The notes under the pieces are model-generated. The model did no database searches and was not told the DNA's origin. It saw only the letters and a program-made list of their open reading frames with translations. Shown piece by piece: positions 1 through 26,207 of a DNA stretch of 64,000 nt (within the stretch, counting starts at the first letter, position 1; each line of letters opens with the position of its first letter). Source of the DNA: Deltaproteobacteria bacterium (GTDB lineage Bacteria > Desulfobacterota > DSM-4660 > Desulfatiglandales > HGW-15); NCBI GenBank assembly GCA_019310485.1, contig JAFDEF010000004.1:35890-99889 (forward strand). The letters are read 5' to 3'. A program made the position numbers and the translations under genes.

Positions 1-687
1 TGTTACGTAATGAGCATAAAGTGCACCCCCAAGGGCGGCGAGAGCTGCTGAAAGCACAAAGACTTTGATCTTGTACCTGGCTACAGGGACTCCCATGGTC
101 TCGGCTGCATCTTCGCTCCGTTTTAAGGCCTGAAGTGCCCTTCCCACCCTTGAATTAGCGAGATTGATCAAGAAAATCACGGCACCTATAACAACCAGCC
201 ACACAAAAACATAATAGCTGGTGTCGGTATCAAGGACCAATCCTCCGAGGCTGAAAGTGGGGATCCCCACAAGCCCGGAAGGGCCGCCCGTGAGACTGCC
301 CCATTCTTTGAAAACAATACTTACGATCTCTCCAAACCCAAGAGTTGCCATGGCCAAATAGTGCCCTTTTAATTTCAGGGCGGGAATACCTAATATAAGC
401 GCTATGGCGCAAGCCAACAACACGGCCAGGACTACTGTAACACACGGGCTCCATCCAGTTTGTATTGAGAGTACTCCCGAGGTGTATGCGCCAATACCGT
501 AAAAGGCTGCCTGGCACAGGGACAGCTGGCCTGCGAAACCAATGAGCATGGTAAGCCCAAGGGCTACAAGAACATGAATCCCGACGAAGATCATCAAGGT
601 CTGGTAGTATAAATTGCGCTCCACCAGAGGGAACAAGAAAAGGGCTACGGCAAGGAACACCAGCATGTATAGGTTGTTCTTCGTCAT
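1..687 (-). CDS. Branched-chain-amino-acid-type ABC transporter permease, LivM-like (3' end runs off the window)
   Basis: Own reverse translation from ATG at 687 gives MTKNNLYMLVFLAVALFLFPLVERNLYYQTLMIFVGIHVLV..., a polytopic hydrophobic LivM-like protein. The start abuts the TAA stop of the upstream LivH-type gene. Absent from the ORF track because it is open at the window edge. Confidence 0.75.
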   Translation of the reverse strand, partial: MTKNNLYMLVFLAVALFLFPLVERNLYYQTLMIFVGIHVLVALGLTMLIGFAGQLSLCQAAFYGIGAYTSGVLSIQTGWSPCVTVVLAVLLACAIALILGIPALKLKGHYLAMATLGFGEIVSIVFKEWGSLTGGPSGLVGIPTFSLGGLVLDTDTSYYVFVWLVVIGAVIFLINLANSRVGRALQALKRSEDAAETMGVPVARYKIKVFVLSAALAALGGALYAHYVT

Positions 688-1566
688 TTATTCCACTTCG
701 TATTTTCCAAGAATTCCTCCCGGCCGTACAAATAGAACCAGGAGCATGATGAGAAAGGCAAACGCATCCTTGTACCCTGAGGAAATAAAACCCGCAGCAA
801 AGGATTCCACTATGCCAATAGCAAGGCCTGCCACTACAGCGCCGAAAGAGTTTCCCACTCCCCCGACAATCGCCGCGGAGAAACCTTTAATGCCCAGCAT
901 GGCACCCCTGTCGTATTCCATCAGCGTAATTGGAGTAATGATTGCACCTGCCACGGCGCCTATTGCGGCACTCATGGCAAAGCTCAGGGTTACCATCATT
1001 TTCACGTTAATTCCCATGCAGCTGGCGGCGTCACGGTTAATGGCACATGCCCTCAGAGCTTTCCCGGCCATGGTGAATTTGAAAAAATACGTAAGGAGTA
1101 ACACTACAAGCAGCGTCAGTCCTATCACCCAGAGAATCTGGGGCACAATAACGGCTCCGGCTATATGTATTGGTTTTGCATGGGTGAAAGGCTCAAGGGG
1201 ATGAGAGTCCTTGCCCCAGGTTATCATTGCAAGGCCCTTGAGGATGATGGACACCGCTATTGTGATCAGAATCATGGTCACAAGCGAAGGGTTTTTCAGT
1301 GTGCTGATGGTCAGTCTCTCAAACAGAATACCCACCACAGTGACGAGACCAACGGAGAGGAAGAAAGAGAGGAACATGCTCATGCCAAAGGTGGAATGAA
1401 ACATGATCATGGCCATACCACCAATCATGACAAATTCGCCCTGGGCAAAATTGAGCACATCCGTGGCATTGTATATGATATTGAAGCCTACGGCTACCAT
1501 GGCATAAATGCTGCCAACAGTTATTCCGGTCAAAAGCAATTGAAGACATTGGGCCGAAAGAGTCAA
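688..1566 (-). CDS. Branched-chain-amino-acid-type ABC transporter permease, LivH-like
   Basis: 292-aa ORF. N-terminus LLLTGITVGSIYAMVAVGFNIIYNATDVLNFAQGEF is the typical LivH/BPD_transp_2 signature. Hydrophobic throughout. Confidence 0.9.
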   Translation of the reverse strand: MTLSAQCLQLLLTGITVGSIYAMVAVGFNIIYNATDVLNFAQGEFVMIGGMAMIMFHSTFGMSMFLSFFLSVGLVTVVGILFERLTISTLKNPSLVTMILITIAVSIILKGLAMITWGKDSHPLEPFTHAKPIHIAGAVIVPQILWVIGLTLLVVLLLTYFFKFTMAGKALRACAINRDAASCMGINVKMMVTLSFAMSAAIGAVAGAIITPITLMEYDRGAMLGIKGFSAAIVGGVGNSFGAVVAGLAIGIVESFAAGFISSGYKDAFAFLIMLLVLFVRPGGILGKYEVE

Positions 1567-1617
1567 ATTAGAAACCCCTCTTGCAAAGGAAATGTAGCGG
1601 GCTCAGAGCCCGTATGT

Positions 1618-2754
1618 TCATTTTTCAACCACAGATGGATCCTGAACCCTTACCGGTTTTGCCTGTTTTCCGTATCCAAGAAACTGATCCATGAACACGA
1701 TAAAAGGTGTAAGGATATTCCTTTCAGCAAAGACCCTGACCATCCGATGAAGGAAGTTATTCGGCTTGTTCCACGGGCAGACCCTCACACAAACCGAGCA
1801 GTGGGTACCGTTCTTAACCCACCAATCGAAACATTTCATGGCATGGATCGGCCATTTCAGCATGCCGGGTGAATTGGAAACATCCCAAGCTTTATCTGTT
1901 CTTTCCCCTGTCATAAGAGCGCGGCTGGGGCAATACTTTGCGCACAGCTTACATTTCTCGCAAAATTTCTGGACTCCTATGTCCACGGGAGAATCCGGAA
2001 TCAAGGGCAGGTCGGTAAACACCTTGCTGATTCTAACTCTTGGCCCGAACTCCCTGGTGATAAGCTGTCCGCTTCGTCCCATCTCTCCCAGTCCTGCATC
2101 CACGGCCATGGGAATACTTATTCCGAGCTCATTAACTGCAGGAATGGCCTTGAACCCCAGCTCTGCAATAAAGGTGGCAAGGGAGCTGGCACACCAGGCG
2201 GCTTTCGAGTAACCGATGTCGGTTTCAGCCTCCACGTTCGGGGTGTACCGCATACCTTCATAATGCATTTCGCTGGCCAGCACAATCACCATCTTGTACT
2301 CGGGAGGGATTTCAATGGGGTCCCCGTCCCCGGCTGCATTCGTATACATCGCGTTGTGCAGGCCCCAGTGAGTGTAAATCCACAGAGGGTTTAACTTTGC
2401 AATACCCACAAGGTCTGCACCGATCCACAGCGCCGCCTCCTTGATAATCCTGGACATGGCCTGAGGATCGGGGTCTTTAAGCCTGTATTTCTTGTTGTAA
2501 ATGGGAGAAGTCTCTCTTGCCAGCGCGTTTTTCCTTAACAGATAGTCAACAGTACGCCCGGATACCCATCGTGCATGATCCAGGATCGTTTTTCCGGGAA
2601 TTTGCTTTGCGATATTCTCAACACTTCTTTTATGCATAAGGGTGTACTTGTCTGCTTCAACCGCGCCGCGGCTGAAACCCGTGTTGCGCTCGTCAAAACG
2701 GACAAGTTCCCCGGTAATATATTTTTTGTAAGTCGGTTCTTTTACTTTTCTCAT
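1618..2754 (-). CDS. Reductive dehalogenase (RdhA) family homologue, cytoplasmic type (no TAT signal), paralogue 1
   Basis: 378 aa. C-terminal FCEKCKLCAKYCP ... C-x12-CSVCVRVCPWNK matches the RdhA two-cluster pattern, in which the second cluster has one distant Cys. The N-terminus MRKVKEPTYKKYITGELVRFDER lacks an RRxFLK twin-arginine motif. No RdhB-like anchor gene is adjacent. Confidence 0.75.
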   Translation of the reverse strand: MRKVKEPTYKKYITGELVRFDERNTGFSRGAVEADKYTLMHKRSVENIAKQIPGKTILDHARWVSGRTVDYLLRKNALARETSPIYNKKYRLKDPDPQAMSRIIKEAALWIGADLVGIAKLNPLWIYTHWGLHNAMYTNAAGDGDPIEIPPEYKMVIVLASEMHYEGMRYTPNVEAETDIGYSKAAWCASSLATFIAELGFKAIPAVNELGISIPMAVDAGLGEMGRSGQLITREFGPRVRISKVFTDLPLIPDSPVDIGVQKFCEKCKLCAKYCPSRALMTGERTDKAWDVSNSPGMLKWPIHAMKCFDWWVKNGTHCSVCVRVCPWNKPNNFLHRMVRVFAERNILTPFIVFMDQFLGYGKQAKPVRVQDPSVVEK

Positions 2755-2900
2755 AGAAAATGATCTTCCGAGTTAAAGGTCTCCTGATCCAATTTTATTC
2801 ACCAGGCACTGCAAGAAAGCCGATCTCCGCGCACAGAGATCGGCTTCCACCTCTCACATACCCGGGGAGTTAAATCCCCTTGCCAAAATTCTAACCGGAC

Positions 2901-4052
2901 CTACTCCAGCAATTTCCAGTTTCCATTGACCACTTTAACCATCACCACGGATTCTTTTGTCAGGCCATTGTGGTTGGTGGGGGAGTAATTGTAAGTGCCG
3001 ACCACGCCAACAAAGTTTTTGAGATTTTCGATATAGTCCCTGATCTTGGCTCGATCAGGCCCCACAGCCTTCAGGGCACTGATAGCAATCCTTATGGCAT
3101 CATGAGCGTTACCGCCGAACTTGCTCACATCGTGCTTGAACCTAGACTCGTAAGCTTTCTTGTATTTCATCAGGATCGGCTTTTGAGGATCTGAATCAGG
3201 GAGCTGGTCAGCGACGATCAATTTTGGAGAAGGGAAGATGATTCCCTCCCCTGCTTTTCCCGTCATTTGGAGAAATTTTTTCGATGCAGCGCCATGGCTC
3301 TGGTATAAGGGTATTTTCATTGCCAGCTGCTTCCAGTTCTTTGTCACTATTGCTTCCGTGGGACCAACCGTCCAGCAGATCAGGGCCTGAGCATCAGTTC
3401 TCTGGATTCGCGTCAACTGAGCGGTCATGTCGGAGTCTTTTGGACCAAATTTCTCATCAGCCACCACCTGGATTCCAAACTTGGGTGCCACCGCGATCAG
3501 TTGTTCCCGGCCACTGTCCCCAAAGCCGTTTGAGACAGTGATAATCCCTACCCTTTTGATGCCGACCTTGGTCATGTACTGGTAAATCCTGGTTACGACG
3601 TTGGTATCGGTCTGAACGGTGTTAAAAACCCATTTCTTTGGTGGCTGCACAATCTTTCTGCTTGCGCCAAGAGCTATGTGGGGAATTTTTGCCTTTTGCA
3701 CAATAGGAATCACTGCCAGCGCGGATCCGCTCGACATGGGCCCAAGAATGATGGACACCCTATCCTTTTTGATCAGTTTCTGCGCCAGGGTAACCGCCCG
3801 GGTGGGTTTACCCTCTGTATCATAGACGATCAGCTTGATAGGGTGGCCGTTTATGCCTCCGGCCTTGTTGACTTCATCTGCAATCATCACAAAAGTGTTT
3901 TTCCCGGGCTCCCCTAGAAAAGAAAGGCCTCCGGTAACTTCCATGATTGCTCCAATCCTGTAAGGCTGTGCAGCCATACTCGGCGGCACCAAGAAGCAAA
4001 ATGCCGCAAGCAGCGCAATCCCCATTGCCAGGTATCGTTGAATTGCTTTCAT
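2901..4052 (-). CDS. Periplasmic substrate-binding protein, LivK/type-I (Peripla_BP_6-like)
   Basis: ORF 2901..4103. I prefer the internal ATG at 4052 (MKAIQRYLAMGIALLAAFCFLVPPSMAAQPYRIGA), which has a signal peptide and is preceded by GGAGAGGAGG. Body has typical LivK-like motifs (GGINGHPIKLIVYDTEGKP). Confidence 0.85.
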   Translation of the reverse strand: MKAIQRYLAMGIALLAAFCFLVPPSMAAQPYRIGAIMEVTGGLSFLGEPGKNTFVMIADEVNKAGGINGHPIKLIVYDTEGKPTRAVTLAQKLIKKDRVSIILGPMSSGSALAVIPIVQKAKIPHIALGASRKIVQPPKKWVFNTVQTDTNVVTRIYQYMTKVGIKRVGIITVSNGFGDSGREQLIAVAPKFGIQVVADEKFGPKDSDMTAQLTRIQRTDAQALICWTVGPTEAIVTKNWKQLAMKIPLYQSHGAASKKFLQMTGKAGEGIIFPSPKLIVADQLPDSDPQKPILMKYKKAYESRFKHDVSKFGGNAHDAIRIAISALKAVGPDRAKIRDYIENLKNFVGVVGTYNYSPTNHNGLTKESVVMVKVVNGNWKLLE

Positions 4053-4278
4053 AAATTTCCTCCTCTCCCTGATTGTATTGTTTGTTTCGGCGAATGCTAT
4101 CATATTTACTAGGGAATAAACCTTACCCTTTTGGCGGTAATTCTAGTTGCCAGCCCTACCTCTAGGGAAGCACAACAGGCTTGCGGACCGACTCCCAAGG
4201 CAAAAGGCTGCCTCCTTGTTGTTTCGTGGCTCATAGAGAGCTTTTTATAAATAAAAAGTAGCCTGAGTCAAGGTTTTT

Positions 4279-4367: not shown

Positions 4368-4955
4368 ATGTTGATGGTAAAAATTGGGACGAGAATAAAA
4401 GAAAATCGGTGGCGACAGGGTCTAACACTTAAGGATCTTTCAGAAAGATCAGGCCTTTCGGTGGGTCTTTTGAGTCAGATTGAGCGTGGAATTTCCTCCT
4501 CCAGCATCCGCAACATACAGAAGATTGTGAAAGGACTTGGTATCAGTTTTGCCAGTCTGTTTGATGACACTGATCCAGGTGAAAACGGTGCTCAGATGCA
4601 CCAAACATCCAGGAAAGGGATCCAAATTTCGGTCGTACGCGGTAAAAAGAGGAAAAAACTTCTCATGCCCTTTGGGGGTTTTATGGAGCTTCTCGCACCG
4701 GTTCACAATCACAAGATGGAATTTATCTTCCTTCGCTATCCGGTAGGAGCCAAAGTGAAGGAGCCATTTTCCCATGAAGGAGAAGAATGCGGTCTTGTAT
4801 TGAAGGGAAAACTTAAGGCTATTGTCGGTGATCAAGAATTCATCCTTGAGGCTGGTGACAGCATCTACTTTGACAGTACTATTCCTCACCGATGGGAGAA
4901 TATGGCCAAAACTGAAACCACGTTCATCTCAGCCCTCACACCCCCCTCATTGTAA
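4368..4955 (+). CDS. XRE-family HTH + C-terminal cupin transcriptional regulator (copy 1)
   Basis: 195 aa. The N-terminus ...RQGLTLKDLSERSGLSVGLLSQIERG is an HTH_3 motif. The C-terminal GDSIYFDSTIPHRWEN is a cupin motif. GGAGAGG lies upstream of the ATG. Confidence 0.85.
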   Translation: MLMVKIGTRIKENRWRQGLTLKDLSERSGLSVGLLSQIERGISSSSIRNIQKIVKGLGISFASLFDDTDPGENGAQMHQTSRKGIQISVVRGKKRKKLLMPFGGFMELLAPVHNHKMEFIFLRYPVGAKVKEPFSHEGEECGLVLKGKLKAIVGDQEFILEAGDSIYFDSTIPHRWENMAKTETTFISALTPPSL

Positions 4956-5054: not shown

Positions 5055-5624
5055 ATGGAAAAAGAAATACAAAAAAGAATAAAGATGTATAGAAAAGACC
5101 GGGGCCTTACCCTTAGAGAGCTGGCTGAAAGGGCTGGGTGTACGCACTCCTATATTTCTCAGGTGGAAAAGGGAAAAAGTGTTCCATCTCTATCCATGGT
5201 GGGAAAACTTGCTTCCGCCCTTGAAGTTAGCGTGGTGGACCTTCTTAACGGTCTGCCGGGGGTAGAAGACAAAGGCGAATGGTATCTGAGCAAAAATGAT
5301 CGAAAAACAATAAATTATCCTGACGGCAAAGTTTCAAGCCAACTTCTGGTACCCCGGATTACAACCAGAAAGATGGAACCATTGATAAGTACAATAAAGC
5401 CTGGGGGCAGCTCTGATGCTGCCGAGGGGATGAATCACCCCCCTGGGACCGAGGAGTTTGTTTTCTTGATAAAAGGAGAGCTTGATTTTGCCGTAAACGG
5501 AAAGGAGATTCACCTAAAGGAGGGTGATACTCTCAGTTTTGACGGAAATCTGCCGCATAGCTGGGTGAACAGCAGCGGCAAAACAGCGGTGGTCCTTTTT
5601 GTGTTTACTCCACCCATATGGTGA
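5055..5624 (+). CDS. XRE-family HTH + cupin transcriptional regulator (copy 2)
   Basis: ORF 4986..5624. I prefer the ATG at 5055 (MEKEIQKRIKMYRKDRGLTLRELAERAGCTHSYISQVEKG). The C-terminus has a cupin motif (GDTLSFDGNLPHSWVN). Confidence 0.85.
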   Translation: MEKEIQKRIKMYRKDRGLTLRELAERAGCTHSYISQVEKGKSVPSLSMVGKLASALEVSVVDLLNGLPGVEDKGEWYLSKNDRKTINYPDGKVSSQLLVPRITTRKMEPLISTIKPGGSSDAAEGMNHPPGTEEFVFLIKGELDFAVNGKEIHLKEGDTLSFDGNLPHSWVNSSGKTAVVLFVFTPPIW

Positions 5625-5657
5625 GATGTGACCGGAAACAGAGGGGTAGAAGAAGTT

Positions 5658-8030
5658 ATGGAACAAAGAGTATTTTCGACCATAGGCAAGGTAACCAGAC
5701 GCAAGGAAGGGATAGCTCGGGTAACAGGAAAGGAAGTTTTTTCCTCAGATGTGACACTTCCAGGCATGCTGTTTGCGAGAGTACTCAGGAGCCCTTATCC
5801 GCATGCAAAGGTCCTTTCAGTGGACACGGAGGAAGCGGAGAAGATGGGCGCGATCTGTGTTACGCCCGATGAGGTACCCCAGATTCGCTATAACGAGAGG
5901 CAGGTAAGCATTCCTTCAAAGACCTACCGCGACAGGACCGTGTTGCCAGAGGTGGTCAGGCATGTGGGTGAAGGCGTTGTTGGAGTGGCAGCCAGGACGG
6001 AAGCGCTTGCCGAGGAGGCGGTCAGGCGAGTTAAGGTTGAATGGGAAAGACTGCCTGCCGTTTTTGATCCCTTTGAGGCAATGAAAGAGGGGGCCCCTGC
6101 TGTCCATGAGGATGTAATGCTGGGGGATGTCAGGCTTCCTATTAAGAACAACATTGCCTGTGTGCGGGAAGTCAGCGAAGGGGATATTGAAGAAGGCTTT
6201 AGCATCGCTGATTTCATTGTGGAGGAGGAATTTCGAACAGGGAGAGCCTATCACACGCAGCTTGAAACCAAGGCGGTAGTCTGCCGCCCTGAACCTGACG
6301 GCGGCATCACCGTGTGGCCGACTGCCCAGTCCATCCATAACACAAGACAGCTCCTTGGTAGAATCTTCGATATCCCTTTGAGTAAAGTGAATGTCGTAAG
6401 AGTCCCTATTGGGGGTGCTTTTGGATCAAGTATTCAGATGAACACTGCTGTTGCCGTTTGCGCGGCTCTAGCACTCAAGGCAAAGAGGCCGGTAAAGCTT
6501 TGCCTGACCCGCGAAGAGGACATGTATGATCACTGCAAGTACCCCTCAATCATTAGGCTTAAATACGGGATCAAGAAAGACGGGACTATAACCGCAGGCG
6601 AGATGCAGACCGTTGTTGATATAGGGGCACATAATATTCAGGCATATCCGCTGCTGGGATGTATGGCAGGATGGTTTGTTTCTCTTTACAGAATGCCTCA
6701 CATGCACTTTCACGGGACGGCTGTTTATACAAACAAAGCGCCCGCATGCGCGATGCAGGGATACGGAAACCCACAGGTTTCTTTTGCAGTTGAAAGCATG
6801 ATGGATATCCTTGCAGAGAAGGTGGGCATGGACCCTGTTGATCTTCGCCTGAAAAACTATGTGGGACTTGGAGAAACATTCTGGGGCCAGGGACCCACGG
6901 TGCGATCCATCATCCGTAGCTGCGGGGTGGAGGAGATGCTTTCAAAGGGGAAAGAAAAGATAGGATGGGACAAACGGGGAAAGCCTGAAGAAAAAAGAGG
7001 AAGGTATCGCCGCGGTATTGGCGTGGGCAGGAGCTTTCATACTTCGGGAACAGGCGCTCCCATGCCCGGAGAGGTCATTGATTATTCCACGGCAATGGTA
7101 AAAGTTAATGAAGATGGCTCGGTTGATTACCTGACCGCTCTTATGTGTCACGGGGGCGGAACTCTTGAGGCAGGTGCAAAGATTGTCGCAGAGGTGATGG
7201 GTGTGCCGCTTGACAAAGTTGGGATTTCACCATCCGATACCAGGAGCACGGGGTATGATGTTTGTACCCATGCTACGCGAGGGGTTTACTGCGGAGGGGC
7301 TGCAATAAAGAAGGCGGCGGAGTCGGCAAAAAAGATCCTGCTGGAGTTTGCTTCCCGGCTGCTGGAAGTTAATCCGGATGCGCTTCAAATAAGGCCTGAC
7401 GAAGAGCTGGGCCAGGGAGTGATATTTCTTGAGGGTGCGAAAGACAAAGCCATAACAGTGGGGGAAGTGGCAAAGACCGCCCAGTTGAAGGGCTGGGGTA
7501 CAGCCATAGCTGTAGAAAGCCACAGGCAGGTGAACTGCCCCCCATGCTTTGTCACTAACTTTATAGAAGTGGAGGTGGATACTGAAACAGGGAACGTAAG
7601 GCCAACCAGGGCCGTGGCCGCCGTGGATGCTGGAACGGTCATTAACCCTGACCTGGCTGCCGGTCAACTGGAAGGGGGACTCTGCCGCGGGATTGGTCTG
7701 GCTCTTCTCGAGGATACTGACTATGACAGGGATACAGGAGAGCTCACGTGCGGCGCCAGCCTGGTAGACTATAAGACATATACTGCTGTTGACATGCCTT
7801 TTGTGGATGATCTTGAAGCCTTTTTTGCCAATACATATGAGCCTTCAGGTCCTTTTGGGGCAAAAGGTGTGGGGGAGGCTGCCAACAACTGTACTGCCGG
7901 CACAGTGGCCAATGCCGTTTACAATGCAATTGGGATTCGTTTCAAAGAAGCACCCATCACGCCGGAAAAGGTTTTAAAAGCCTTGAAAGAAAATGGCGCA
8001 GCAAAAAGGAGAGCTGAAAGAAATGATTAA
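5658..8030 (+). CDS. Xanthine dehydrogenase/aldehyde oxidase-family molybdopterin-binding large subunit (L1)
   Basis: About 790 aa. N-terminal a/b-hammerhead-like region (GKVTRRKEGIARVTGKEVFSSDVTLPGMLFARVLRSPYPHAKV). Also GGAFGS and a C-terminal GAKGVGEA motif. The ATG at 5658 follows GAGGGG; an alternative start at 5628 is possible. Confidence 0.9.
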   Translation: MEQRVFSTIGKVTRRKEGIARVTGKEVFSSDVTLPGMLFARVLRSPYPHAKVLSVDTEEAEKMGAICVTPDEVPQIRYNERQVSIPSKTYRDRTVLPEVVRHVGEGVVGVAARTEALAEEAVRRVKVEWERLPAVFDPFEAMKEGAPAVHEDVMLGDVRLPIKNNIACVREVSEGDIEEGFSIADFIVEEEFRTGRAYHTQLETKAVVCRPEPDGGITVWPTAQSIHNTRQLLGRIFDIPLSKVNVVRVPIGGAFGSSIQMNTAVAVCAALALKAKRPVKLCLTREEDMYDHCKYPSIIRLKYGIKKDGTITAGEMQTVVDIGAHNIQAYPLLGCMAGWFVSLYRMPHMHFHGTAVYTNKAPACAMQGYGNPQVSFAVESMMDILAEKVGMDPVDLRLKNYVGLGETFWGQGPTVRSIIRSCGVEEMLSKGKEKIGWDKRGKPEEKRGRYRRGIGVGRSFHTSGTGAPMPGEVIDYSTAMVKVNEDGSVDYLTALMCHGGGTLEAGAKIVAEVMGVPLDKVGISPSDTRSTGYDVCTHATRGVYCGGAAIKKAAESAKKILLEFASRLLEVNPDALQIRPDEELGQGVIFLEGAKDKAITVGEVAKTAQLKGWGTAIAVESHRQVNCPPCFVTNFIEVEVDTETGNVRPTRAVAAVDAGTVINPDLAAGQLEGGLCRGIGLALLEDTDYDRDTGELTCGASLVDYKTYTAVDMPFVDDLEAFFANTYEPSGPFGAKGVGEAANNCTAGTVANAVYNAIGIRFKEAPITPEKVLKALKENGAAKRRAERND

Positions 8031-10881: not shown

Positions 10882-10899
10882 ACTAAGCGGAGATAAGAC

Positions 10900-17907: not shown

Positions 17908-17929
17908 TATATGTGTATATAGTATGTAG

Positions 17930-18933: not shown

Positions 18934-18935
18934 GC

Positions 18936-19985
18936 ATGCAAGCAGCGATCGAAAATGAAAACGAGATGCTTTTACAGGTCGATGACCTGAAAGTGGATTA
19001 CCAAATGGAGGGAGCGGTAGGCAGGGCAGTGGATGGGGTTTCCTTTGCCCTACGAAAAGGGGAGTGTATCGGCCTGGTTGGGGAATCAGGCTCAGGCAAG
19101 AGCACAATTGCCAAGGCAATTCTCAAATTACTTCCTTCCAATGGTGCACTGGCTGGGGGAAGAGTTATTCTCAAGGGCAGAGATATAAGCCATTTTACGG
19201 AAGAGGAGATGGATGCCATCCGTTGGGCAGAGATCTCACTGGTGCCACAGAGTGCCATGAACGCCTTGAATCCTGTTCAACGAATATCCAGCCAGATGGT
19301 AGAGACGTTCCTGGCTCATCAGGCTAAGGCCGATTCCAGAAAGACCTTACTGGATAAATGTCAGCAGCTTTTTGAAATGGTTGGTCTGAGTAGAAATCGG
19401 ATTTTTGATTATCCACACCAGTTCAGCGGCGGAATGAGACAAAGAGCCACTATCGCTATGGCTATTGCCCTTGAGCCATCTGTGGTAATTGCCGATGAGC
19501 CAACCACAGCCCTAGATGTCATTATGCAGGCCCAAATCATTAATTTGCTGAAATCCTTGAGTGAAGATAAGGGAGTTTCCATTATTCTGATTACCCATGA
19601 TATATCCATTGTTGCCCAGATATGTCAAAGGGTTGGGGTTATGTATGCAGGGCGTCTTGTGGAATCCGGTGACATCTTGAAGGTATTTAATAATCCTTTT
19701 CATCCGTATACGATGGGTTTGAAGGCCGCCTTTCCTACGATCAAGGAACTGAAAAAGACCCTCATCTCTATTCCGGGAAGTCCTCCCTTATTGACTAAAC
19801 GGCTAGAAGGCTGCTGCTTTTCGGATAGATGCCCCTTTTCTATTGAGCAATGCCAGAGGGTAATCCCGCACACCGTTACAATTAGAGAAGACCACTATGT
19901 GGCATGCCACCGTATTGAATATGCGGAGCGCTTCAGAAAAGAAATTATCGATATTTTTGGAACCAGGGTCAGGGGCCAGTCGTAA
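18936..19985 (+). CDS. Dpp/Opp-type ABC ATPase (DppD/OppD-like)
   Basis: ATG at 18936, immediately after the permease stop. Walker A GESGSGKST, signature FSGGMRQR, Walker B VVIADEPTTALD, and a C-terminal oligo_HPY-type extension. Confidence 0.9.
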   Translation: MQAAIENENEMLLQVDDLKVDYQMEGAVGRAVDGVSFALRKGECIGLVGESGSGKSTIAKAILKLLPSNGALAGGRVILKGRDISHFTEEEMDAIRWAEISLVPQSAMNALNPVQRISSQMVETFLAHQAKADSRKTLLDKCQQLFEMVGLSRNRIFDYPHQFSGGMRQRATIAMAIALEPSVVIADEPTTALDVIMQAQIINLLKSLSEDKGVSIILITHDISIVAQICQRVGVMYAGRLVESGDILKVFNNPFHPYTMGLKAAFPTIKELKKTLISIPGSPPLLTKRLEGCCFSDRCPFSIEQCQRVIPHTVTIREDHYVACHRIEYAERFRKEIIDIFGTRVRGQS

Positions 19986-20974
19986 TGATTGAGGTGAAGG
20001 ATCTTCAAAAGTCTTTTGCTGTGAAAGAAACTTTTTTCAGTGCTTTTACTTCACTTCTCAAAAAAAAAGAGAAACGGATAAGGGCGGTAAATGGCATTTC
20101 TTTTAGCATCCATGCTGGTGAGATCATGGGGGTGGCAGGGGAGAGTGGCTGTGGAAAAACAACCACTGCCATGCTACTCCTTGGTTTGTATCGTCCTTCG
20201 GGAGGAAAAGTGCTTTTTGAAGGGATGGATATTTCCTCTCTGAAAGGAACAGAACTAAGATATTTTCGCAGAAAGGCACAGCTCATTTTTCAGGATCCTT
20301 ATGAGTCGCTAAATCCCAGGTTCACTGTGTACCGAACTATTGAAGAACCATTAATCGTAAATCGCCTTCGACGCAAAAGCGAACGCAGAGAAAAGATCAT
20401 GAAAGCTATGGAAAAGGCTAAATTAATGCCTTTGGAGGCTTTTTGCGATAAATACCCGCACGAACTGAGTGGCGGCGAACGGCAAAGGGTGTGCATTGCC
20501 AGAGCAATTGTCCTGGAGCCCGTTCTTCTGATTGCGGATGAAGCCACTTCTATGCTGGATGTATCCATCCGGGCCGGTATCTTGGAAATTATTAAGGAGC
20601 TAACAGAAGAAATGAAAATGGCTACGCTTTATATTTCTCATGATATGTCTCTTTTGGGAAGTATATGCGACAAGATTGGAATAATGTACGCGGGGGAGAT
20701 AGTGGAAATTGGAAGGTCTGAAGATATTATCCAATCTCCCTTGCACCCCTATACCAGAGCTTTAATTGAAGCAGTTCCAGTTCCTGAATTTCGGCGGGCT
20801 AAACTCAAACTGAAAGCCATTGCCGGGGAGCCACCGGATTTGGTTAATCTCCCCAGAGGATGCAGTTTTCGACTGAGGTGCGAAAGGGCTATTAAGGCTT
20901 GCCGGACATCAAGGCCAAAGCTTTTCGAGGTGAAACAAGGTCACTTTGTGGCCTGCCATCAGGTGGGAGACTAA
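19985..20974 (+). CDS. Dpp/Opp-type ABC ATPase (DppF/OppF-like)
   Basis: TAATG stop/start overlap with the previous gene. GESGCGKTT, LSGGERQR, LLIADEATSMLD. Confidence 0.9.
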   Translation: MIEVKDLQKSFAVKETFFSAFTSLLKKKEKRIRAVNGISFSIHAGEIMGVAGESGCGKTTTAMLLLGLYRPSGGKVLFEGMDISSLKGTELRYFRRKAQLIFQDPYESLNPRFTVYRTIEEPLIVNRLRRKSERREKIMKAMEKAKLMPLEAFCDKYPHELSGGERQRVCIARAIVLEPVLLIADEATSMLDVSIRAGILEIIKELTEEMKMATLYISHDMSLLGSICDKIGIMYAGEIVEIGRSEDIIQSPLHPYTRALIEAVPVPEFRRAKLKLKAIAGEPPDLVNLPRGCSFRLRCERAIKACRTSRPKLFEVKQGHFVACHQVGD

Positions 20975-20976
20975 TC

Positions 20977-21948
20977 TTGGAGAGGAGATATATCGCAAGT
21001 CGGATAGCTCAAACCATCATTACGCTTTACGCGGTATTAACGCTGATGTGGGTCCTGTTTCGTCTTGTCCCCGGAGATCCTACAGCTATGTTCTTAAGCG
21101 GCCGATTGTCACCTGAAGATGTTGAGGCTATAAGAAAATTATGGGGGCTCGATCAGCCTTTACACGTCCAATATTTCAAATATATGAAAAATCTTTCCAT
21201 GGGTGATCTGGGAATATCCTTTTCCTACCGGGAGCCAGTGCTTAAGGTGATGCTTCCAGCCCTTTTCAATACATTAATTCTCATGATTCCTTCTATATTG
21301 ATGGCCATTGTAGTTGGCACTCTCATGGGCACCAATCTGGGATGGAAGAGGGGAAGCGCACGCGAGAGAATAGGGGTGGTGCTGTCCTTGTTTGTGCGGT
21401 CTTTTCCTGTGTTCCTAACCGGTATTATTGTTTTAATGATCTTTGTCCATCTGCTTGGGTGGTTTCCATTGGGAGGGATGAGGACCATTGGCGCATTTGG
21501 TCTTTCATGGTGGGAGCGATTTCTGGATGTGAGCCATCATTTGGCTTTACCCTTTGGGGTTGCATTTCTTTACTATGTTGGGGATGTCGTGGTTATATCA
21601 AGAACGAGCATGTTAGAAATGATAGGAGAAGAATTTCTCCAATTTGCCAAAGCACGAGGTCTATCCGACAAAAAGGTTAAAAAGATTGCAATGCGCAATG
21701 CCATTATCCCTGTTATTACTTACTCCACAATACTCATTGGTTTTGCTTTTGGTGGGCAGGTTTTGCTCGAAGTTGTCTTTGCTTGGCCGGGGGTTGGACG
21801 GCTAATGGTGAATTCCGTTCAGATACACGATTACCCGGTTGCTCAGGCAGCCTTTTTTCTCATGGCTACCGCCGTCATTATTGCCAATTTGCTGGTCGAC
21901 TTTTCTTATGGCTATCTTGATCCGCGGATTTCAATCCAAAAGCGCTAG
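20977..21948 (+). CDS. Dpp/Opp/Nik-type ABC permease (DppB/OppB-like)
   Basis: ORF 20899..21948. I prefer the in-frame TTG at 20977, after AGGTGGGAG (LERRYIASRIAQTIITLYAVLTLMWVLFRLVPGDP, the typical DppB N-terminus). Confidence 0.85.
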   Translation: MERRYIASRIAQTIITLYAVLTLMWVLFRLVPGDPTAMFLSGRLSPEDVEAIRKLWGLDQPLHVQYFKYMKNLSMGDLGISFSYREPVLKVMLPALFNTLILMIPSILMAIVVGTLMGTNLGWKRGSARERIGVVLSLFVRSFPVFLTGIIVLMIFVHLLGWFPLGGMRTIGAFGLSWWERFLDVSHHLALPFGVAFLYYVGDVVVISRTSMLEMIGEEFLQFAKARGLSDKKVKKIAMRNAIIPVITYSTILIGFAFGGQVLLEVVFAWPGVGRLMVNSVQIHDYPVAQAAFFLMATAVIIANLLVDFSYGYLDPRISIQKR

Positions 21949-21959
21949 CAGAAAAGGGA

Positions 21960-21980
21960 TTTGGGCCGCAAGGGCCCAAA
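21960..21980 (+). promoter_or_regulatory. Intercistronic GC-rich hairpin between the permease and the rdhA-like gene
   Basis: TTTGGGCC gcaag GGCCCAAA (8-bp stem), followed by GAGGAAG and the ATG at 21995. Confidence 0.4.
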
Positions 21981-21994
21981 GTAGAGGAAGCAAA

Positions 21995-23179
21995 ATGAAG
22001 AAGTTATCTCAACCCTATTACAAGAAATATATTACAAGCGAATTGAAACGTTTTGATGAAAGGCACACCGGATTCAGTCGAGCTGCTAAGCAGGGGGATA
22101 GGTATACGCAGATCTACAAAAACGGTGTCAAGAATATTGCAAGAAAGGAGCTCGGCAAGACCATCTTCGACCATTCCATGGCGGTGGCGTCAAAGAGCGT
22201 CGACCAAATCCTCCGTAAAACCGCTTATGCTAGGGAAGCAGTTCCGGCACAAAATAGAACTTTCCGCTTAAGGGATCCTGACCCTGTGGCCATGAGCAGG
22301 ATTGTCAAAGATGCGGGAAAGTGGTTCGGTGCTGATCTAGTAGGCGTGACCAAGCTCAATCGCTTATGGGTTTACACCCACTGGGGACTCCACAATGTTC
22401 GTTACACCAACGCGGCAAAAGAGGGAGACCCTGTGGATATTCCTTCACAGTATAAAAACGTTATAGTTATGGTTCACGAGATGGATTATGACGCGCTGGC
22501 CCGCAGTCCCCATCGAGAGCCCGCAACAAACATGGGGTATTCGCGGATGGCGTGGACAGCGACCATGCTAGCTACCTTCATCGGGGAACTTGGGTATGTT
22601 GCGATTCCATCAGGCAACGAGTTGGGGATCAATATCCCTTTTGCTGTGGATGCTGGATTGGGGGAAATGGGCCGTAACGGGCTTCTCATCACACGGGAGT
22701 TCGGACCGAGGGTGCGTATCAGCAAGGTTTTCACTGACCTGCCTCTAGCGCCCGATGCTCCCATTGACATCGGTGTTCAACGGTTTTGCGAGAAGTGTGG
22801 GCGTTGTGCCGAATCATGCCCTAGCCGAGCTATCATGTCCGGCGAAAGAACGGATAAGGCATGGGATGAGTCCAATTCGGAAGGTCTCCTTAAGTGGCCT
22901 GTTCGGGCTATGCGGTGTTTTGAATGGTGGGTGAAAAACGGCGGGGGATGTTCCGTGTGCATCCGGGTCTGTCCGTGGAATAAGCGTAACAACTTGATAC
23001 ACAAGTGCGTCAGGCAATTTGCGGAAAGGGATCTTTTCATCAAGCTTATCGTCCAGTTGGACAAGCTTGTAGGATTTGGTCGACAACGAAAAGAGCCGGG
23101 CTACGCCACTTGGCAGGATCCGTCTGTGACGCAGACAGGTCCCTCCCCAGAGAATGTTTTAGATGCCCATGGGTCATGA
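21995..23179 (+). CDS. Reductive dehalogenase (RdhA) family homologue, cytoplasmic type, paralogue 2
   Basis: ORF 21839..23179. I prefer the ATG at 21995 (MKKLSQPYYKKYITSELKRFDERHTGFSR), collinear with paralogue 1. FCEKCGRCAESCP ... CSVCIRVCPWNK. No TAT motif. Confidence 0.75.
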   Translation: MKKLSQPYYKKYITSELKRFDERHTGFSRAAKQGDRYTQIYKNGVKNIARKELGKTIFDHSMAVASKSVDQILRKTAYAREAVPAQNRTFRLRDPDPVAMSRIVKDAGKWFGADLVGVTKLNRLWVYTHWGLHNVRYTNAAKEGDPVDIPSQYKNVIVMVHEMDYDALARSPHREPATNMGYSRMAWTATMLATFIGELGYVAIPSGNELGINIPFAVDAGLGEMGRNGLLITREFGPRVRISKVFTDLPLAPDAPIDIGVQRFCEKCGRCAESCPSRAIMSGERTDKAWDESNSEGLLKWPVRAMRCFEWWVKNGGGCSVCIRVCPWNKRNNLIHKCVRQFAERDLFIKLIVQLDKLVGFGRQRKEPGYATWQDPSVTQTGPSPENVLDAHGS

Positions 23180-23309
23180 TGGGGGCCGAAAACCCAGGCT
23201 GACACTCGAATTTGAAAGAAAAGTTCTATGCCTGCAGAAAAACGTGGAATGAAGTATGATCTGGAGATTGACCTCGGATACCGATGATTATGAAAAGGAG
23301 AATATTATA

Positions 23310-24722
23310 ATGGAAAACAAAACAATTTTGTTGAAGGACGCGGACTTTGTGGTTAGGTACTCTTCCAGAGTAGATGCGTTCGCATCAGTGGTTATTCAAG
23401 GAAACTTGATCATCGAAGTGGGTGACAGCGAGGATCTCAAAGAGAAGTATCAATATGACGAGGTATACGATTGCAAGGGAAAGGTAGTCTTGCCAGGTTT
23501 AATTAACTCTCATACCCACTGTAATGAAACCATGATGAGAGGCTTGGGGCACCAGCTTAAGTTCCACGACTGGGTAGATAACGTTATCCTTCCCATCGGT
23601 GCCGCCATGGAAAACATGGATGAAAATTTGTATACATGTCTTGCCCAGATGACAGCCATGGAGGCGGTGGCCAGTGGTACCACGTCCATCATTGAACACA
23701 GTGTCAATTTTGGGAAAAGGCATGTATACACCATAGCGACAGCGTTGCAGGATTTTGGAATCAGAGGGGCTGTGGCCAAAGGGGCAGAGGATTTTTCGCC
23801 TCTGGACAGGGGCCACGTGGGCTCCATAGAGGAGGAGATCAGGGAGACGCAGGGATTCTTGGAGAGATGGAAAGTCCAGGGGAATGGCCTCATCAAGGCA
23901 TGGGTAGGGCCTTCGGGGATTGAGGGGAAGACCACGGGGGGATGTACTGGAGATCTGCTGAAGGAGCTTAAAAAGCTGGCGGATTCCTATGACACGCGGT
24001 ACCATACTCATTTAGCTGGAAATATCTGGGAGGTCGAGAATATTCGTAGGGAAAAAGGGATGGCCGGGAGTGTGGCCTTTGCAGATTCGCTGGGCATCCT
24101 GGATGAGAAGACTTCGCTTGCACACTGTATTTGGGTAAGTCATGGAGAGGATGAAATCCTAAGAAGGGCAAAGCCTCAGATTTGTCATTGTCCAAGCTGC
24201 AATCAAATCAATGGCCTTGGCATCATCCCATTGGTCGAGCTGCGCAAGCAGGGAACAGTTTGTGCAATTGGTACAGATGGGGCGCCCCAGAATGACTCCT
24301 TGGACATGTTTAGAGAGATGAGGCAGGCGGTCCTTTTGCAGAAGATCCGTGCCCTGGATCCAGACATCATGGGGCATCTTGATGCCTTTCAGATGGCTAC
24401 AGAGTCGGGCGCAAAGGTGCTAGGGATAGAAAACCTTGGCAAGATCGAACCGGGATATTTGGCCGATATCATTATCATCCAGCGTAAGGGAAACCTATTT
24501 CTTACGCCCATGTACGATCCTATCGATACCTTGGTCTATGCAGGCTCTGGAGGAAGAGACGTTGCCATGACAATGGTTAACGGCAGAGTGCTTTACAAAG
24601 ATGGGCAATTTAGGACGGTTGATGCGGAAAAGGTTATCTCCACGCTGAAGGAGGCAAGTAGCCTAATGCCGGTACCAGGGGATAGGTTTTCCTGTATTTA
24701 CAGCCCTGGGGCCGTGTTGTAG
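23310..24722 (+). CDS. Amidohydrolase-superfamily enzyme (ATZ/TRZ - SsnA - nucleobase deaminase-like)
   Basis: ATG at 23310 after AAAAGGAG. PGLINSHTHCNE (HxH metal ligands), YHTHLAG, HCIW, AIGTDGAPQND (Asp ligand). Confidence 0.8.
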   Translation: MENKTILLKDADFVVRYSSRVDAFASVVIQGNLIIEVGDSEDLKEKYQYDEVYDCKGKVVLPGLINSHTHCNETMMRGLGHQLKFHDWVDNVILPIGAAMENMDENLYTCLAQMTAMEAVASGTTSIIEHSVNFGKRHVYTIATALQDFGIRGAVAKGAEDFSPLDRGHVGSIEEEIRETQGFLERWKVQGNGLIKAWVGPSGIEGKTTGGCTGDLLKELKKLADSYDTRYHTHLAGNIWEVENIRREKGMAGSVAFADSLGILDEKTSLAHCIWVSHGEDEILRRAKPQICHCPSCNQINGLGIIPLVELRKQGTVCAIGTDGAPQNDSLDMFREMRQAVLLQKIRALDPDIMGHLDAFQMATESGAKVLGIENLGKIEPGYLADIIIIQRKGNLFLTPMYDPIDTLVYAGSGGRDVAMTMVNGRVLYKDGQFRTVDAEKVISTLKEASSLMPVPGDRFSCIYSPGAVL

Positions 24723-24980
24723 GCGAATGAGGGAAGCCCTGATAGGTATTGCCTTCAAAATCGGTTGGGATGAGATAGTTGTTGTCATTCAGTGTGATTC
24801 TGATAGCTTGAAGTTGACTGAGATCTCCCATCGGATCAGGCCATGAGGTCTTAACCCCGTTGTTGTCCACGCGGGCTTGAAGATCGAACTCCAGACGCAA
24901 GGCCAAGAAGCTGCCTACAATATGCCCTATACCGGACTCATCGCAGTGATGATAAATGGGGCGAACCTTCAGGATGGAAA

Positions 24981-26207
24981 GTGCTTTCTTTTCAGGAAGT
25001 CTCGGCCCTACCCCTGGTGGAGAATCCTGAAAAAAAAGTGAACAGGGCGCTGGATAACCCTATTGGTTCAGAGAAAATTGAAGAAATGGCCAGGCCGGGA
25101 ATGAAGGCCGTGGTGCTTTTCGATGACTGGCAGCGTCCCACCCCGGCTTACCTTGTTTTCCCCGAAATCCTTGGCAGGTTGAATGGGGCGGGGATACCTG
25201 ACAGCGACGTTACAGCGATCTGTGCACTTGAAACTCATCCGCCAATGTCACGCGAGGATATCCGCCGAAAAATAGGTAGAGTTTCTTACGAACGCCTCTT
25301 CCCACGGATTTTTAACCACGATGCTCGTTCTCCAGAAAACGTGGCCGTCGGCAAAAGTTCTTACGGCACCTTTGTCAGGGTTAACCCCTATGTCTTTGAG
25401 TCCGATTTAAGAATAGGTATCGGGACATGTGTTCCGCATCCCTGGGCTGGATTCGGAGGTGGCACAAAGCTTGTGATGCCTGGAGTTTGTGGGCAGGATA
25501 CAATAGCGCAGCACCACCTCAAATGGCTTCAGACCGGGGAAATAGGACCCGGGCGCATAGAGGGGAATCGGTTCCTGGAAGAACAGGAGGAAATAGCGGA
25601 AATAGTTGGCTTCGATTTCAAGATCGACTTCATTTTGAATGATGAGAAAGAGCCGGTAAAGATTTTTGCCGGAAATCCTGTAGAGGAACACAAAAAGGCA
25701 GCCATAGAGAGCTTGGAGTGCTGCAAGATTGATATTTCCGGCCAAAGCGATGTGAGCATTACTTCTGCATTTCCGCTCGAGAAGGGGTTACAATCTCTGA
25801 AAGGCCTGGGAACAGCAGTTAGGGCTACTAAAGTTGGAGGATACATTATCTGGATGGCGCCTCAGGAAGATGGGGAGAGATTGATTCCCATATGGGAAGA
25901 AGTGGCCAGTAAGAAGTCTGCCGCAGAGTACATGGAAGATCTTTTGTCAGGGAACTATCCACCAAAATGTGAACCACTTGGCATAAGCCTTTTAATTACT
26001 ATTCATTACCTGAAACAGATAACTAAGAAATTTTCGAGGATAGTACACGTTACCAAAGGTATCCCCATAAGGCTTGTTGAGGCAATGGGATTTTCATATG
26101 CAACTAGTATCGAAGAAGCGATCGATATTGTTCAAAAGGAAGTTCCTGAAGGTAATGTTTCAATTTTTCCTTCTGGTGGCAGCGTCTTCCCAGTCCTGAG
26201 CGATTAA
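24981..26207 (+). CDS. LarA-family (lactate racemase-like, nickel-pincer-nucleotide-dependent) racemase/epimerase homologue
   Basis: 408 aa. LDNPIGSEKIEEMARPG, FDDWQRPTP, ALETHPP and PHPWAGFGGGTKLVMPG align (from memory) with L. plantarum LarA LDNPIGSDKLEELARGK / SDHTRP / GFHRP(His108) / SHFFAGFSGGRK(His174, Lys184). GTG start. About 23 aa shorter at the N-terminus than that reference. Confidence 0.7.
   Translation: MLSFQEVSALPLVENPEKKVNRALDNPIGSEKIEEMARPGMKAVVLFDDWQRPTPAYLVFPEILGRLNGAGIPDSDVTAICALETHPPMSREDIRRKIGRVSYERLFPRIFNHDARSPENVAVGKSSYGTFVRVNPYVFESDLRIGIGTCVPHPWAGFGGGTKLVMPGVCGQDTIAQHHLKWLQTGEIGPGRIEGNRFLEEQEEIAEIVGFDFKIDFILNDEKEPVKIFAGNPVEEHKKAAIESLECCKIDISGQSDVSITSAFPLEKGLQSLKGLGTAVRATKVGGYIIWMAPQEDGERLIPIWEEVASKKSAAEYMEDLLSGNYPPKCEPLGISLLITIHYLKQITKKFSRIVHVTKGIPIRLVEAMGFSYATSIEEAIDIVQKEVPEGNVSIFPSGGSVFPVLSD

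Follow-up and report, generated by a model that had tools for sequence, protein, structure and literature searches.

A stretch of 64,000 nucleotides from a deltaproteobacterium of the order Desulfatiglandales (assembly GCA_019310485.1, contig JAFDEF010000004.1, positions 35,890 to 99,889; hereafter the window) carries genes for two molybdenum hydroxylases (Mo-hydroxylases) of the xanthine dehydrogenase (XDH) family, a carbamate kinase (ArcC), an aspartate carbamoyltransferase (ATCase; PyrB) and two homologues of the reductive dehalogenase RdhA. These genes sit in an arginine/pyrimidine housekeeping backbone that has received two insertions. The best explanation appears to be a mosaic of accessory catabolic modules on either side of a true pyrB, with a possible ATP-yielding core ending in N-carbamoyl-aspartate. 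We hold this reading tentatively, at slightly less than an even chance, and prefer it because an operon joining a Mo-hydroxylase to ATCase is found across phyla and a carbamate kinase lies nearby in three lineages. Two features appear to be conserved beyond the window, judging from comparison of genomes: the operon of Mo-hydroxylase, pyrB and carbamate kinase, and cytoplasmic RdhA-like genes embedded in importer operons.

The backbone is visible in related genomes. Three loci (L002 to L004) from the organism of assembly GCA_029932405.1 or close strains overlap the window at 99.4 to 99.7% identity and extend it to the left, where two ATPase genes of a Liv-type importer are followed by pyrE, a gene for a 449-aa amidohydrolase, argG, argF and argH. 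The pyrE product scores above its curated cutoff, and the amidohydrolase is hydantoinase/dihydroorotase-like, with both the dihydroorotase and the hydantoinase models just under their cutoffs. In a more distant relative (L102), the order argH-argF-argG-amidohydrolase (448 aa)-pyrE-pyrB-orn is uninterrupted, and its proteins are 67 to 81% identical to those flanking the window region. Block A of the window lies between pyrE and pyrB and comprises the Liv-type importer with RdhA-like 1, the XRE/cupin regulators, both Mo-hydroxylases and ArcC. Block B, between pyrB and orn, comprises a GntR regulator, an Opp-type importer, RdhA-like 2, an amidohydrolase and a LarA-like protein. A 5.7-kb metagenome contig (L087) matches window positions 11766-15150 at 97.8% and 26473-28039 at 99.2% identity. 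The two matches are separated by only 762 bp (3386-4147 of the contig), which are unrelated to the 11.3 kb at 15151-26472 of the window, and block B is therefore absent from a near-identical strain. The orn gene follows pyrB directly in L102 and follows the pyrB match after the 762 bp in L087. Because the backbone is uninterrupted in L102 and block B is missing from L087, the region is not one co-inherited island but a patchwork of at least three gene blocks with separate inheritance, contrary to the original prediction, which was made from the DNA letters of the window. The block B junction falls in the last codons of pyrB, and the PyrB C termini differ between strains (308 versus 310 aa); no integrase gene or repeats were seen at the junctions of this block.

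Gene identities were obtained from a listing of open reading frames (ORFs) with their translations and from Pfam and NCBIfam profile searches with curated cutoffs. Every gene listed in the original prediction was present at the coordinates given there. The genes, in window coordinates and with large, medium and small hydroxylase subunits given as L, M and S, are as follows.

1-687, minus strand: LivM-like permease, partial (Pfam BPD_transp_2).
688-1566, minus strand: LivH-like permease (Pfam BPD_transp_2).
1618-2754, minus strand: RdhA-like 1, 378 aa (TIGR02486, 217 bits versus a cutoff of 160.35), between the binding-protein and permease genes.
2901-4103, minus strand: Liv-type periplasmic substrate-binding protein (Pfam Peripla_BP_6, 201 bits).
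4368-4955, plus strand: XRE-HTH/cupin regulator 1 (Pfam HTH_3 and Cupin_2).
~5055-5624, plus strand: XRE-HTH/cupin regulator 2 (Pfam HTH_3 and Cupin_2).
L 5628-8030, M 7993-8907 and S ~8904-9371, plus strand: Mo-hydroxylase 1, XDH family, order L-M-S (Pfam).
M ~9537-10421, S ~10408-10881 and L 10900-13212, plus strand: Mo-hydroxylase 2, XDH family, order M-S-L (Pfam).
13239-14183, plus strand: carbamate kinase ArcC (TIGR00746, 364.7 bits versus 358.25; NF009007, 392 versus 266).
14232-15158, plus strand: PyrB, aspartate carbamoyltransferase catalytic chain (TIGR00670, 371 bits versus 237).
15397-16110, plus strand: GntR/FCD regulator, first gene of the strain-variable block (Pfam).
16273-17907, 18064-18933, ~18936-19985, 19985-20974 and ~20983-21948, plus strand: Opp-type importer, namely its binding protein, OppC, OppD, OppF and OppB (Pfam and NCBIfam).
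~21995-23179, plus strand: RdhA-like 2, ~394 aa, cytoplasmic (TIGR02486, 225 bits versus 160.35).
23256-24722, plus strand: amidohydrolase of the TRZ/ATZ-deaminase group, COG0402-like (Pfam Amidohydro_1).
24981-26207, plus strand: LarA-like homologue of nickel-pincer 2-hydroxyacid racemases (Pfam Lar_N and LarA_C).
26464-27018, plus strand: oligoribonuclease gene orn, the right-hand backbone gene that bounds the region (Pfam RNase_T).

The divergent Liv-type importer carrying RdhA-like 1 was confirmed on the minus strand at 1-4103. The remaining run had been described as a plus-strand series with short or overlapping junctions; the strand is as described, but four junctions are wide: GntR is preceded by a gap of 239 nt, the Opp binding-protein gene has gaps of 163 nt upstream and 157 nt downstream, and LarA is preceded by 259 nt. 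The top sigma-70-like site of the region (11 of 12 positions, 15268-15297) lies in the gap upstream of GntR. Given these sizeable gaps and the promoter-like match before GntR, the region is likely divided into at least three transcription units. The pyrB gene is probably cotranscribed with the Mo-hydroxylase genes and arcC. Base composition is uniform across the region, with no anomaly. No flanking repeats were found around the region and no tRNA genes within it, so there is no sign of site-specific integration, and an Rfam scan of the whole window gave zero matches and hence no riboswitch that might hint at a ligand.

By its conserved residues, the PyrB of the window is a true ATCase, of the PyrB rather than the YgeW type, as had been proposed. 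It is 50% identical to E. coli PyrB and 27% identical to YgeW, and both ornithine carbamoyltransferase and YgeW models score far under their cutoffs (46-51 bits versus 453-500 for the YgeW models). All 14 E. coli active-site residues for binding carbamoyl phosphate and aspartate, which we take to be S52, T53, R54, T55, S80, K84, R105, H134, Q137, R167, R229, Q231, P266 and L267, are identical in the window protein and in its homologues in L007, L084, L086, L102, L103 and L109. Since PyrB is a canonical ATCase, any catabolic product would have to be N-carbamoyl-aspartate, and this argues against the known purine route.

PyrB homologues of 70 to 82% identity occur in Deltaproteobacteria and Spirochaetota, and several are joined to Mo-hydroxylase genes. 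On a Spirochaetaceae chromosome (L086), an orthologue of Mo-hydroxylase 1 (L subunit 59% identical, order L-M-S) overlaps the start of pyrB by 4 nt, and an orthologue of Mo-hydroxylase 2 (54%, order M-S-L) is divergent from it. L103 and L109 carry an IclR regulator gene followed by Mo-hydroxylase 1 (L-M-S) and pyrB, and the same Mo-hydroxylase 1-PyrB junction is present on the fragments L088, L089 and L096. These three fragments and L087 came from a metagenome scan with PyrB as the single query, which gave 14 loci, mostly distant ATCases. In the Mo-hydroxylase 1-PyrB operons outside the window, identity to the window proteins is 58-59% for the L subunit and 72-74% for PyrB. Genes for XdhC and a MocA-like protein stand upstream of pyrB in L101, which also favours a link of Mo-hydroxylases to PyrB. 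Orthologues of Mo-hydroxylase 2 were additionally found in L005 (82%), L007 (81%) and L105 (73%). Carbamate kinase adjoins PyrB in the window, L087 and L007, and a carbamate kinase scoring above its cutoff is encoded 4 kb from PyrB in L109; in all, a carbamate kinase is near PyrB in three lineages. A gene of the URO-D family lies near the Mo-hydroxylase 1-PyrB operon in L103.

Links between the blocks also recur. The 334-kb contig L007, whose proteins are 74 to 81% identical to those of the window, has on one strand Mo-hydroxylases 1 and 2, a dimethyl sulfoxide (DMSO)-reductase-family enzyme, an MtaA-like methyltransferase, a Liv binding protein, RdhA1, LivHM and ATPases, ArcC and PyrB, that is, the same content in a rearranged order. 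In L005, Mo-hydroxylase 2 is followed by a Liv binding protein and RdhA1. Another organism (L108) has OppC-OppD-OppF-OppB-RdhA2-amidohydrolase in the same order at 70 to 83% identity, and L019 links GntR, a truncated Opp binding protein, the amidohydrolase, XRE/cupin regulator 1 and Liv-RdhA1. The XRE/cupin regulator 1 orthologue of L019 (71% identity) is again divergent from Liv-RdhA1. The amidohydrolase gene (orthologues 73-74% identical) thus comes after RdhA2 in L108 and, in L019, after the genes for GntR and the Opp binding protein. A LarA homologue (60%) lies 9 kb from the Mo-hydroxylase 2 orthologue in L105, and another (44%) is near an RdhA-like gene in L016. The persistence of such gene pairs despite rearranged order (L007, L005, L019, L105, L108, L016, L086, L103 and L109) argues that the Mo-hydroxylases are functionally coupled to carbamate kinase and the carbamoyltransferase, and RdhA2 to the amidohydrolase. 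The conserved synteny expected in the original prediction was therefore found for these pairs, but Mo-hydroxylase, ArcC, PyrB and LarA neighbours are rare beside the wider RdhA-like family. The two genes that separate Mo-hydroxylase 2 from Liv-RdhA1 in L007 (5311-8580) encode the DMSO-reductase-family molybdoenzyme (738 aa) and the methyltransferase, an MtaA/CmuA-like corrinoid protein of 340 aa.

The same comparisons bear on a serious rival, less probable than the mosaic with a catabolic core and on balance unlikely, in which the arg/pyr backbone is a hot spot that collects unrelated accessory operons, PyrB is purely biosynthetic and no metabolite is shared between the modules. The accessory operons would be an importer with a dehalogenase, Mo-hydroxylases acting on an aromatic or heterocyclic compound, and a peptide-type importer. 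ArcC would then make carbamoyl phosphate for PyrB and ArgF or serve another pathway. A purely biosynthetic pyrB has to be taken seriously because the ATCase looks orthologous to the housekeeping enzyme. A hot spot would also fit the uninterrupted backbone of L102, the different LarA-containing block inserted elsewhere in the same backbone in L104, the presence or absence of block B between near-identical strains, the three separate regulator sets with sizeable intergenic gaps, and the varied contexts of RdhA1-like and LarA-like homologues. It does not readily account for a Mo-hydroxylase 1-PyrB operon kept in Spirochaetota and others at 58-59% L-subunit identity, once with overlapping stop and start codons, for ArcC still beside PyrB in L007 despite a different upstream gene and a carbamate kinase near PyrB in L109, or for cross-module gene pairs that recur in rearranged orders (L007, L019 and L105).

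Several further observations weigh against a catabolic core. PyrB looks fully biosynthetic, with its active site intact, and orthologues of 72 to 80% identity occur with pyrC and pyrE and apart from Mo-hydroxylase subunit genes in L084, L101 and L102; L084 and L102 lack any Mo-hydroxylase-related gene there. The insertion could have landed next to pyrB by chance, with ArcC perhaps supplying carbamoyl phosphate for biosynthesis. No ring-opening enzyme that would yield carbamoyl-aspartate was found inside the island, and the nearest candidate, the 449-aa backbone amidohydrolase, may simply be the cell's dihydroorotase. Block B is dispensable in the sister strain L087, an RdhA1 orthologue (74% identity) stands in an unrelated context in L008, and the neighbours of LarA homologues differ from locus to locus; such variable contexts, and the loss of block B in one strain, argue against the modules being obligatorily linked. 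Shared descent rather than selection may explain part of the synteny, because the loci linked to RdhA1 are close relatives (74-80%).

Under the preferred reading of a mosaic with a catabolic core, we infer the direction of the ATCase and carbamate kinase reactions, all substrates and the flow of metabolites between modules from gene content. Module 1 would consist of the Liv-type importer and a cytoplasmic corrinoid/Fe-S RdhA that reductively removes a halogen or similar leaving group from an imported polar substrate. Module 2 would comprise the two XRE/cupin regulators, the two Mo-hydroxylases and carbamate kinase, read through into pyrB. Its hydroxylases would place water-derived oxygen on a heterocycle with an N-C-N unit, ring opening by a cyclic amidohydrolase would yield N-carbamoyl-L-aspartate, and ATCase in the phosphorolytic direction together with carbamate kinase would give aspartate, CO2, NH3 and one ATP. 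Module 3, a separately inherited and strain-variable operon made up of the genes of block B, would dehalogenate a second imported substrate and then deaminate it hydrolytically by RdhA2 and the amidohydrolase. That the genes stay clustered, though rearranged, in L007, L019 and L105 favours the view that the products of modules 1 and 3 feed the hydroxylases.

In its most specific form, the proposal is a hitherto undescribed anaerobic ATP-yielding pathway in which one or both Mo-hydroxylases produce a cyclic ureide that is converted to N-carbamoyl-L-aspartate and, by reverse ATCase and carbamate kinase, to aspartate and ATP, fed by importer-coupled cytoplasmic RdhA dehalogenating natural organohalides. 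We regard this complete scheme as a speculative and rather improbable extension, below the hot spot in likelihood. Candidate substrates would be imidazole-4-acetate (giving hydantoin-5-acetate) or a partly deoxygenated pyrimidine carboxylate of the orotate type. A divergent operon in L103 (decarboxylase, aminotransferase, symporter and aldehyde oxidoreductase) was considered as a route to imidazole-acetate from histidine and found no support; its decarboxylase is not histidine-decarboxylase-like, the best models being diaminobutyrate decarboxylase and PanP, both far under cutoff.

The arginine deiminase-type system offers a partial parallel. There too a transcarbamylase gene lies beside carbamate kinase in one operon, and the phosphorolysis of an N-carbamoyl amino acid to give ATP is what is proposed here. 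It differs in using a catabolic ornithine carbamoyltransferase, whereas the window enzyme is aspartate specific and apparently the orthologue of housekeeping pyrB, not a dedicated catabolic paralogue. To our knowledge, ATCase is not known to work catabolically and is treated as strictly biosynthetic. A search of the accessible literature for the gene combination or for a link of Mo-hydroxylases to ATCase or carbamoyl-aspartate returned no relevant paper.

The Mo-hydroxylases themselves give a mixed picture of substrate. Both L subunits are under every curated xanthine dehydrogenase cutoff (best, 544 bits versus 784), and the nearest solved relative of both is 4-hydroxybenzoyl-CoA reductase, joined for Mo-hydroxylase 2 by nicotinate dehydrogenase. 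In the L subunit of Mo-hydroxylase 2 the motifs read GGGFGSKE, NRGFG and GIGE, and in a motif alignment the orthologues retain GGGFG(S/G)KE, (N/F)RGFG and GxGE. The KE, RGFG and GxGE motifs presumably correspond to the positions of Glu802, Arg880 and Glu1261 in bovine XDH. Mo-hydroxylase 1 orthologues have S/G-I and MQGYG, with Gln at the position of the substrate-binding Arg of XDH, as in E. coli XdhD.

These motifs are relevant to the function first proposed for the region, a single dedicated island for anaerobic degradation of purines or urate-like compounds on the logic of the E. coli ygeV-ygfT/xdh region, with RdhA and LarA as new steps. The E. coli region was compared directly by BLASTP with all island proteins. 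The XDH-family enzymes and the carbamate kinase of that logic are present, and the window ArcC is 44% identical to YqeA. Mo-hydroxylase 2 L retains the purine-binding Glu and Arg positions of xanthine dehydrogenase, and the amidohydrolase has 8-oxoguanine deaminase, whose product is urate, among its nearest solved relatives. The rest of the logic did not hold. HyuA, YgeY and YgeX had no BLASTP match among the island proteins, YgfK/UacX is not in the island, and a true ATCase stands in place of YgeW, with an intact aspartate site into which 2,3-diureidopropanoate is not expected to fit. The marker SsnA is unmatched (206 versus 444 bits and 24% identity), the RdhA2-amidohydrolase-LarA block is dispensable in the sister strain, and both L subunits miss the xanthine dehydrogenase cutoffs, as noted. 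A dedicated purine island is consequently improbable.

Carbamoyl-phosphate coupling in itself has precedent: in the 2,8-dioxopurine pathway, the carbamoyltransferase YgeW and the carbamate kinase YqeA were shown to form ATP (bioRxiv 10.1101/2025.04.24.650524). That pathway comprises XdhD, YgfK, SsnA, HyuA, YgeY, YgeW, YqeA and YgeX, with SsnA as its marker gene and 2,3-diureidopropanoate as the substrate of YgeW. Its clusters in E. coli and gut Clostridia share with the window an XDH-family Mo enzyme, a carbamate kinase and the general logic of a ureido compound giving carbamoyl phosphate and then ATP. The window differs in having a true ATCase, two separate three-subunit hydroxylases and added RdhA, LarA and ATP-binding cassette (ABC) importers. 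Since YgfK, HyuA, YgeY, YgeX and YgeW are absent from the island, it does not encode the known 2,8-dioxopurine pathway. The combination of carbamoyl-phosphate-coupled heterocycle catabolism with cytoplasmic RdhA homologues would be new, the coupling itself being already known.

The position of pyrB also invites an anabolic reading, in which the Mo-hydroxylases and carbamate kinase serve pyrimidine supply, for example, in salvage of oxidized pyrimidines or in balancing purines and pyrimidines, with ArcC feeding ATCase. The pyrB of the window, an orthologue of the housekeeping gene, has pyrE, a dihydroorotase-like gene and argF/argG in its vicinity, all carbamoyl-phosphate dependent or of the pyrimidine pathway; L101 has XdhC and a MocA-like gene directly before pyrB, the amidohydrolase gene and pyrE. 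Anabolic carbamate kinases are discussed for some archaea (PMC6022934). Nevertheless, pyrimidine synthesis is not known to involve any XDH-family enzyme, regulators of the IclR and XRE/cupin kinds by importer genes are typical of catabolic operons, and carbamate kinase normally runs toward ATP. We consider such biosynthetic coupling the least probable of the explanations weighed here, marginally behind the purine island.

The two RdhA-like proteins, which are 63% identical to each other, are by sequence and predicted fold true members of the RdhA family, of the PceA-like kind. Both exceed the TIGR02486 cutoff, and RdhA-like 2 aligns with PceA of Sulfurospirillum (4uqu; E = 1e-58) such that Tyr246, Asn272 and Arg305 of PceA match identical residues. 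The corresponding Y184, N210 and R243 are invariant across 31 family members, and two Fe-S cluster motifs are present (Pfam Fer4_16). An AlphaFold model of RdhA-like 2 (pLDDT 88.6) has as its first fold match the respiratory RdhA 8q4h_A (E = 1e-29, TMq 0.76), followed by PceA (0.72), the catabolic NpRdhA (0.68) and, far lower, QueG (0.39). No twin-arginine motif was found in the N termini of the two proteins, MRKVKEPTYKKY and MKKLSQPYYKKY, in agreement with the proposal of two RdhA-family proteins lacking a twin-arginine translocation (TAT) signal. No RdhB gene lies beside either RdhA-like gene, the neighbours being ABC transporter genes, so that neither protein has the TAT signal and adjacent rdhB of respiratory-type RdhA.

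A QueG-like role, which had been suggested for these homologues, is less likely; both are far under the NCBIfam QueG cutoff (53-55 bits versus 200), and the fold similarity to QueG is well below that to PceA. Most likely, the RdhA homologues act in the cytoplasm and strip halogen reductively from polar compounds that have been imported. The respiratory PceA of Sulfurospirillum multivorans is the closest solved relative by sequence and is similar in catalytic residues, the two 4Fe-4S motifs and a near-top fold match; the window proteins differ from it in being cytoplasmic, in having neither TAT signal nor membrane anchor gene, in being ~60-80 residues shorter and in lying in importer rather than rdhAB operons. 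A closer match in type is the "simplified cytosolic" RdhA-like proteins of ~395 aa reported from Desulfobacterota and Chloroflexota (PMC12219181), which share the length class, the lack of TAT signal and RdhB, the lack of a vestigial cobalamin or reductase domain, and the occurrence in Desulfobacterota. That survey gives no biochemical characterization of the type, and systematic embedding in Liv or Opp importer operons or pairing with a deaminase-type amidohydrolase was not found in the survey's passages on transporters or gene neighbourhoods. A literature search for reductive dehalogenases acting on halogenated amino acids returned no relevant paper.

Across 79 genome loci of the wider RdhA-like family, an ABC importer is the recurrent partner. 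At least 10 further loci have an RdhA-like gene inside a Liv-type ABC operon; the gene is the last of the operon in L009, L012-L014, L016, L018, L025 and L047 and adjoins it in L001, L052 and others. Many metagenome-assembled genomes (MAGs) of Desulfobacterota and Syntrophorhabdales show the order binding protein-LivH-LivM-ATPase-ATPase-RdhA with very short gaps. In L001 (4788-12641), an RdhA-like gene (66% identical to RdhA2) comes right after a complete F420 set (cofD, cofC, cofE, cofG and cofH) and luciferase-like oxidoreductase genes, and an M20 peptidase gene and a Liv importer lie 3' of it. RdhA-like 1 is 100% identical to P0012, a protein of the Deltaproteobacteria MAG GCA_029932405.1. 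In the protein search, exact copies of RdhA1 and LarA were on one 128-kb JGI contig (P0012 and P0241), and the best match of RdhA2 was at most 70%, even though RdhA2 stands between these two genes in the window; the missing RdhA2 match may reflect absence from the clustered database or a different gene call.

The enzymes that accompany RdhA2 in block B are less specific than their first labels. For the amidohydrolase, every NCBIfam equivalog score is under cutoff, including the SsnA models (NF005540, 206 bits versus 444; TIGR03314, 188 versus 455.5); its 24% identity to E. coli SsnA equals that to the guanine deaminase GuaD, and among solved structures 3hpa and the 8-oxoguanine deaminase 7ww2 match it best. 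The earlier "SsnA-type" label is thus too specific, and by sequence comparison the protein is deaminase-like. The Opp-type binding protein (16273-17907) looks circularly permuted: residues 60-169 match C-terminal OppA (profile positions 410-511 of 543) and residues 252-539 match SBP_bac_5 positions 1-284 of 368, where the protein ends. Its L019 homologue (71% identical) has the same N-terminal layout.

The identification of a LarA-like gene was borne out. Its two Pfam domains score 158 and 35 bits, both above cutoffs, and the best solved structure is the malate racemase Mar2 (E = 4e-42), with the cofactor-binding His/Lys/His and an Arg aligned. The protein shares the Lar_N and LarA_C domains and these residues with the nickel-pincer malate and lactate racemases (LarA and Mar2), and it differs from them in falling under all subfamily cutoffs (best, LarAH6 malate racemase, 235 bits versus 500), in the variable neighbourhoods of its homologues and in its short N terminus. 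The frame starts at GTG, ~21 N-terminal residues short of homologues of 427-430 aa; similarity extends upstream in frame (PSGWK), where there is no ATG, GTG or TTG. This could reflect an unusual start codon, a truncated yet functional protein or early gene decay. Among the ORFs annotated in the window, which extend to ~43.7 kb, none was identified as larB, larC or larE.

Beyond orn, on the minus strand at 27107-34336, are genes for a GltD/NfnB-like protein (492 aa), an 841-aa protein that joins a NuoG-like N terminus to a PyrK-like domain, and a NuoF-GltD fusion (1039 aa), Fe-S flavoproteins that look like an electron-bifurcating complex. The GltD-like genes resemble YgfK/YgfT, and these GltD-like and NuoF/NuoG-like genes, at 27-34 kb, were weighed as a possible counterpart of YgfK. 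They were treated as unrelated because they lie beyond orn on the other strand and are retained, still adjoining orn, in the strain that lacks module 3 (L087). Further on are panE and panB. A second Liv-type importer (40375-45140), with its binding-protein gene on the plus strand and two permease genes on the minus strand, has no attached RdhA-like gene; two more minus-strand ORFs at 43651-45140, where its ATPases would be expected, are unannotated.

A catabolic function of the Mo-hydroxylase-ATCase-carbamate kinase operon, if borne out, would represent a fourth type of carbamoyl-phosphate-based energy conservation, beside those from arginine, allantoin/oxalurate and urate, and would point to a heterocycle eaten by sediment anaerobes. 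An ATP-yielding carbamoyl-aspartate pathway, if true, would give ATCase its first role in catabolism. Marine Desulfobacterota and Chloroflexota carry abundant simplified cytosolic RdhA homologues, whose embedding in importer operons, once paired with a deaminase-type amidohydrolase, suggests action on imported polar organohalides rather than respiration; halogenated compounds resembling amino acids, peptides or nucleobases are conceivable substrates. Importer-coupled RdhA would thus bear on how natural halogen cycling is read from metagenomes.

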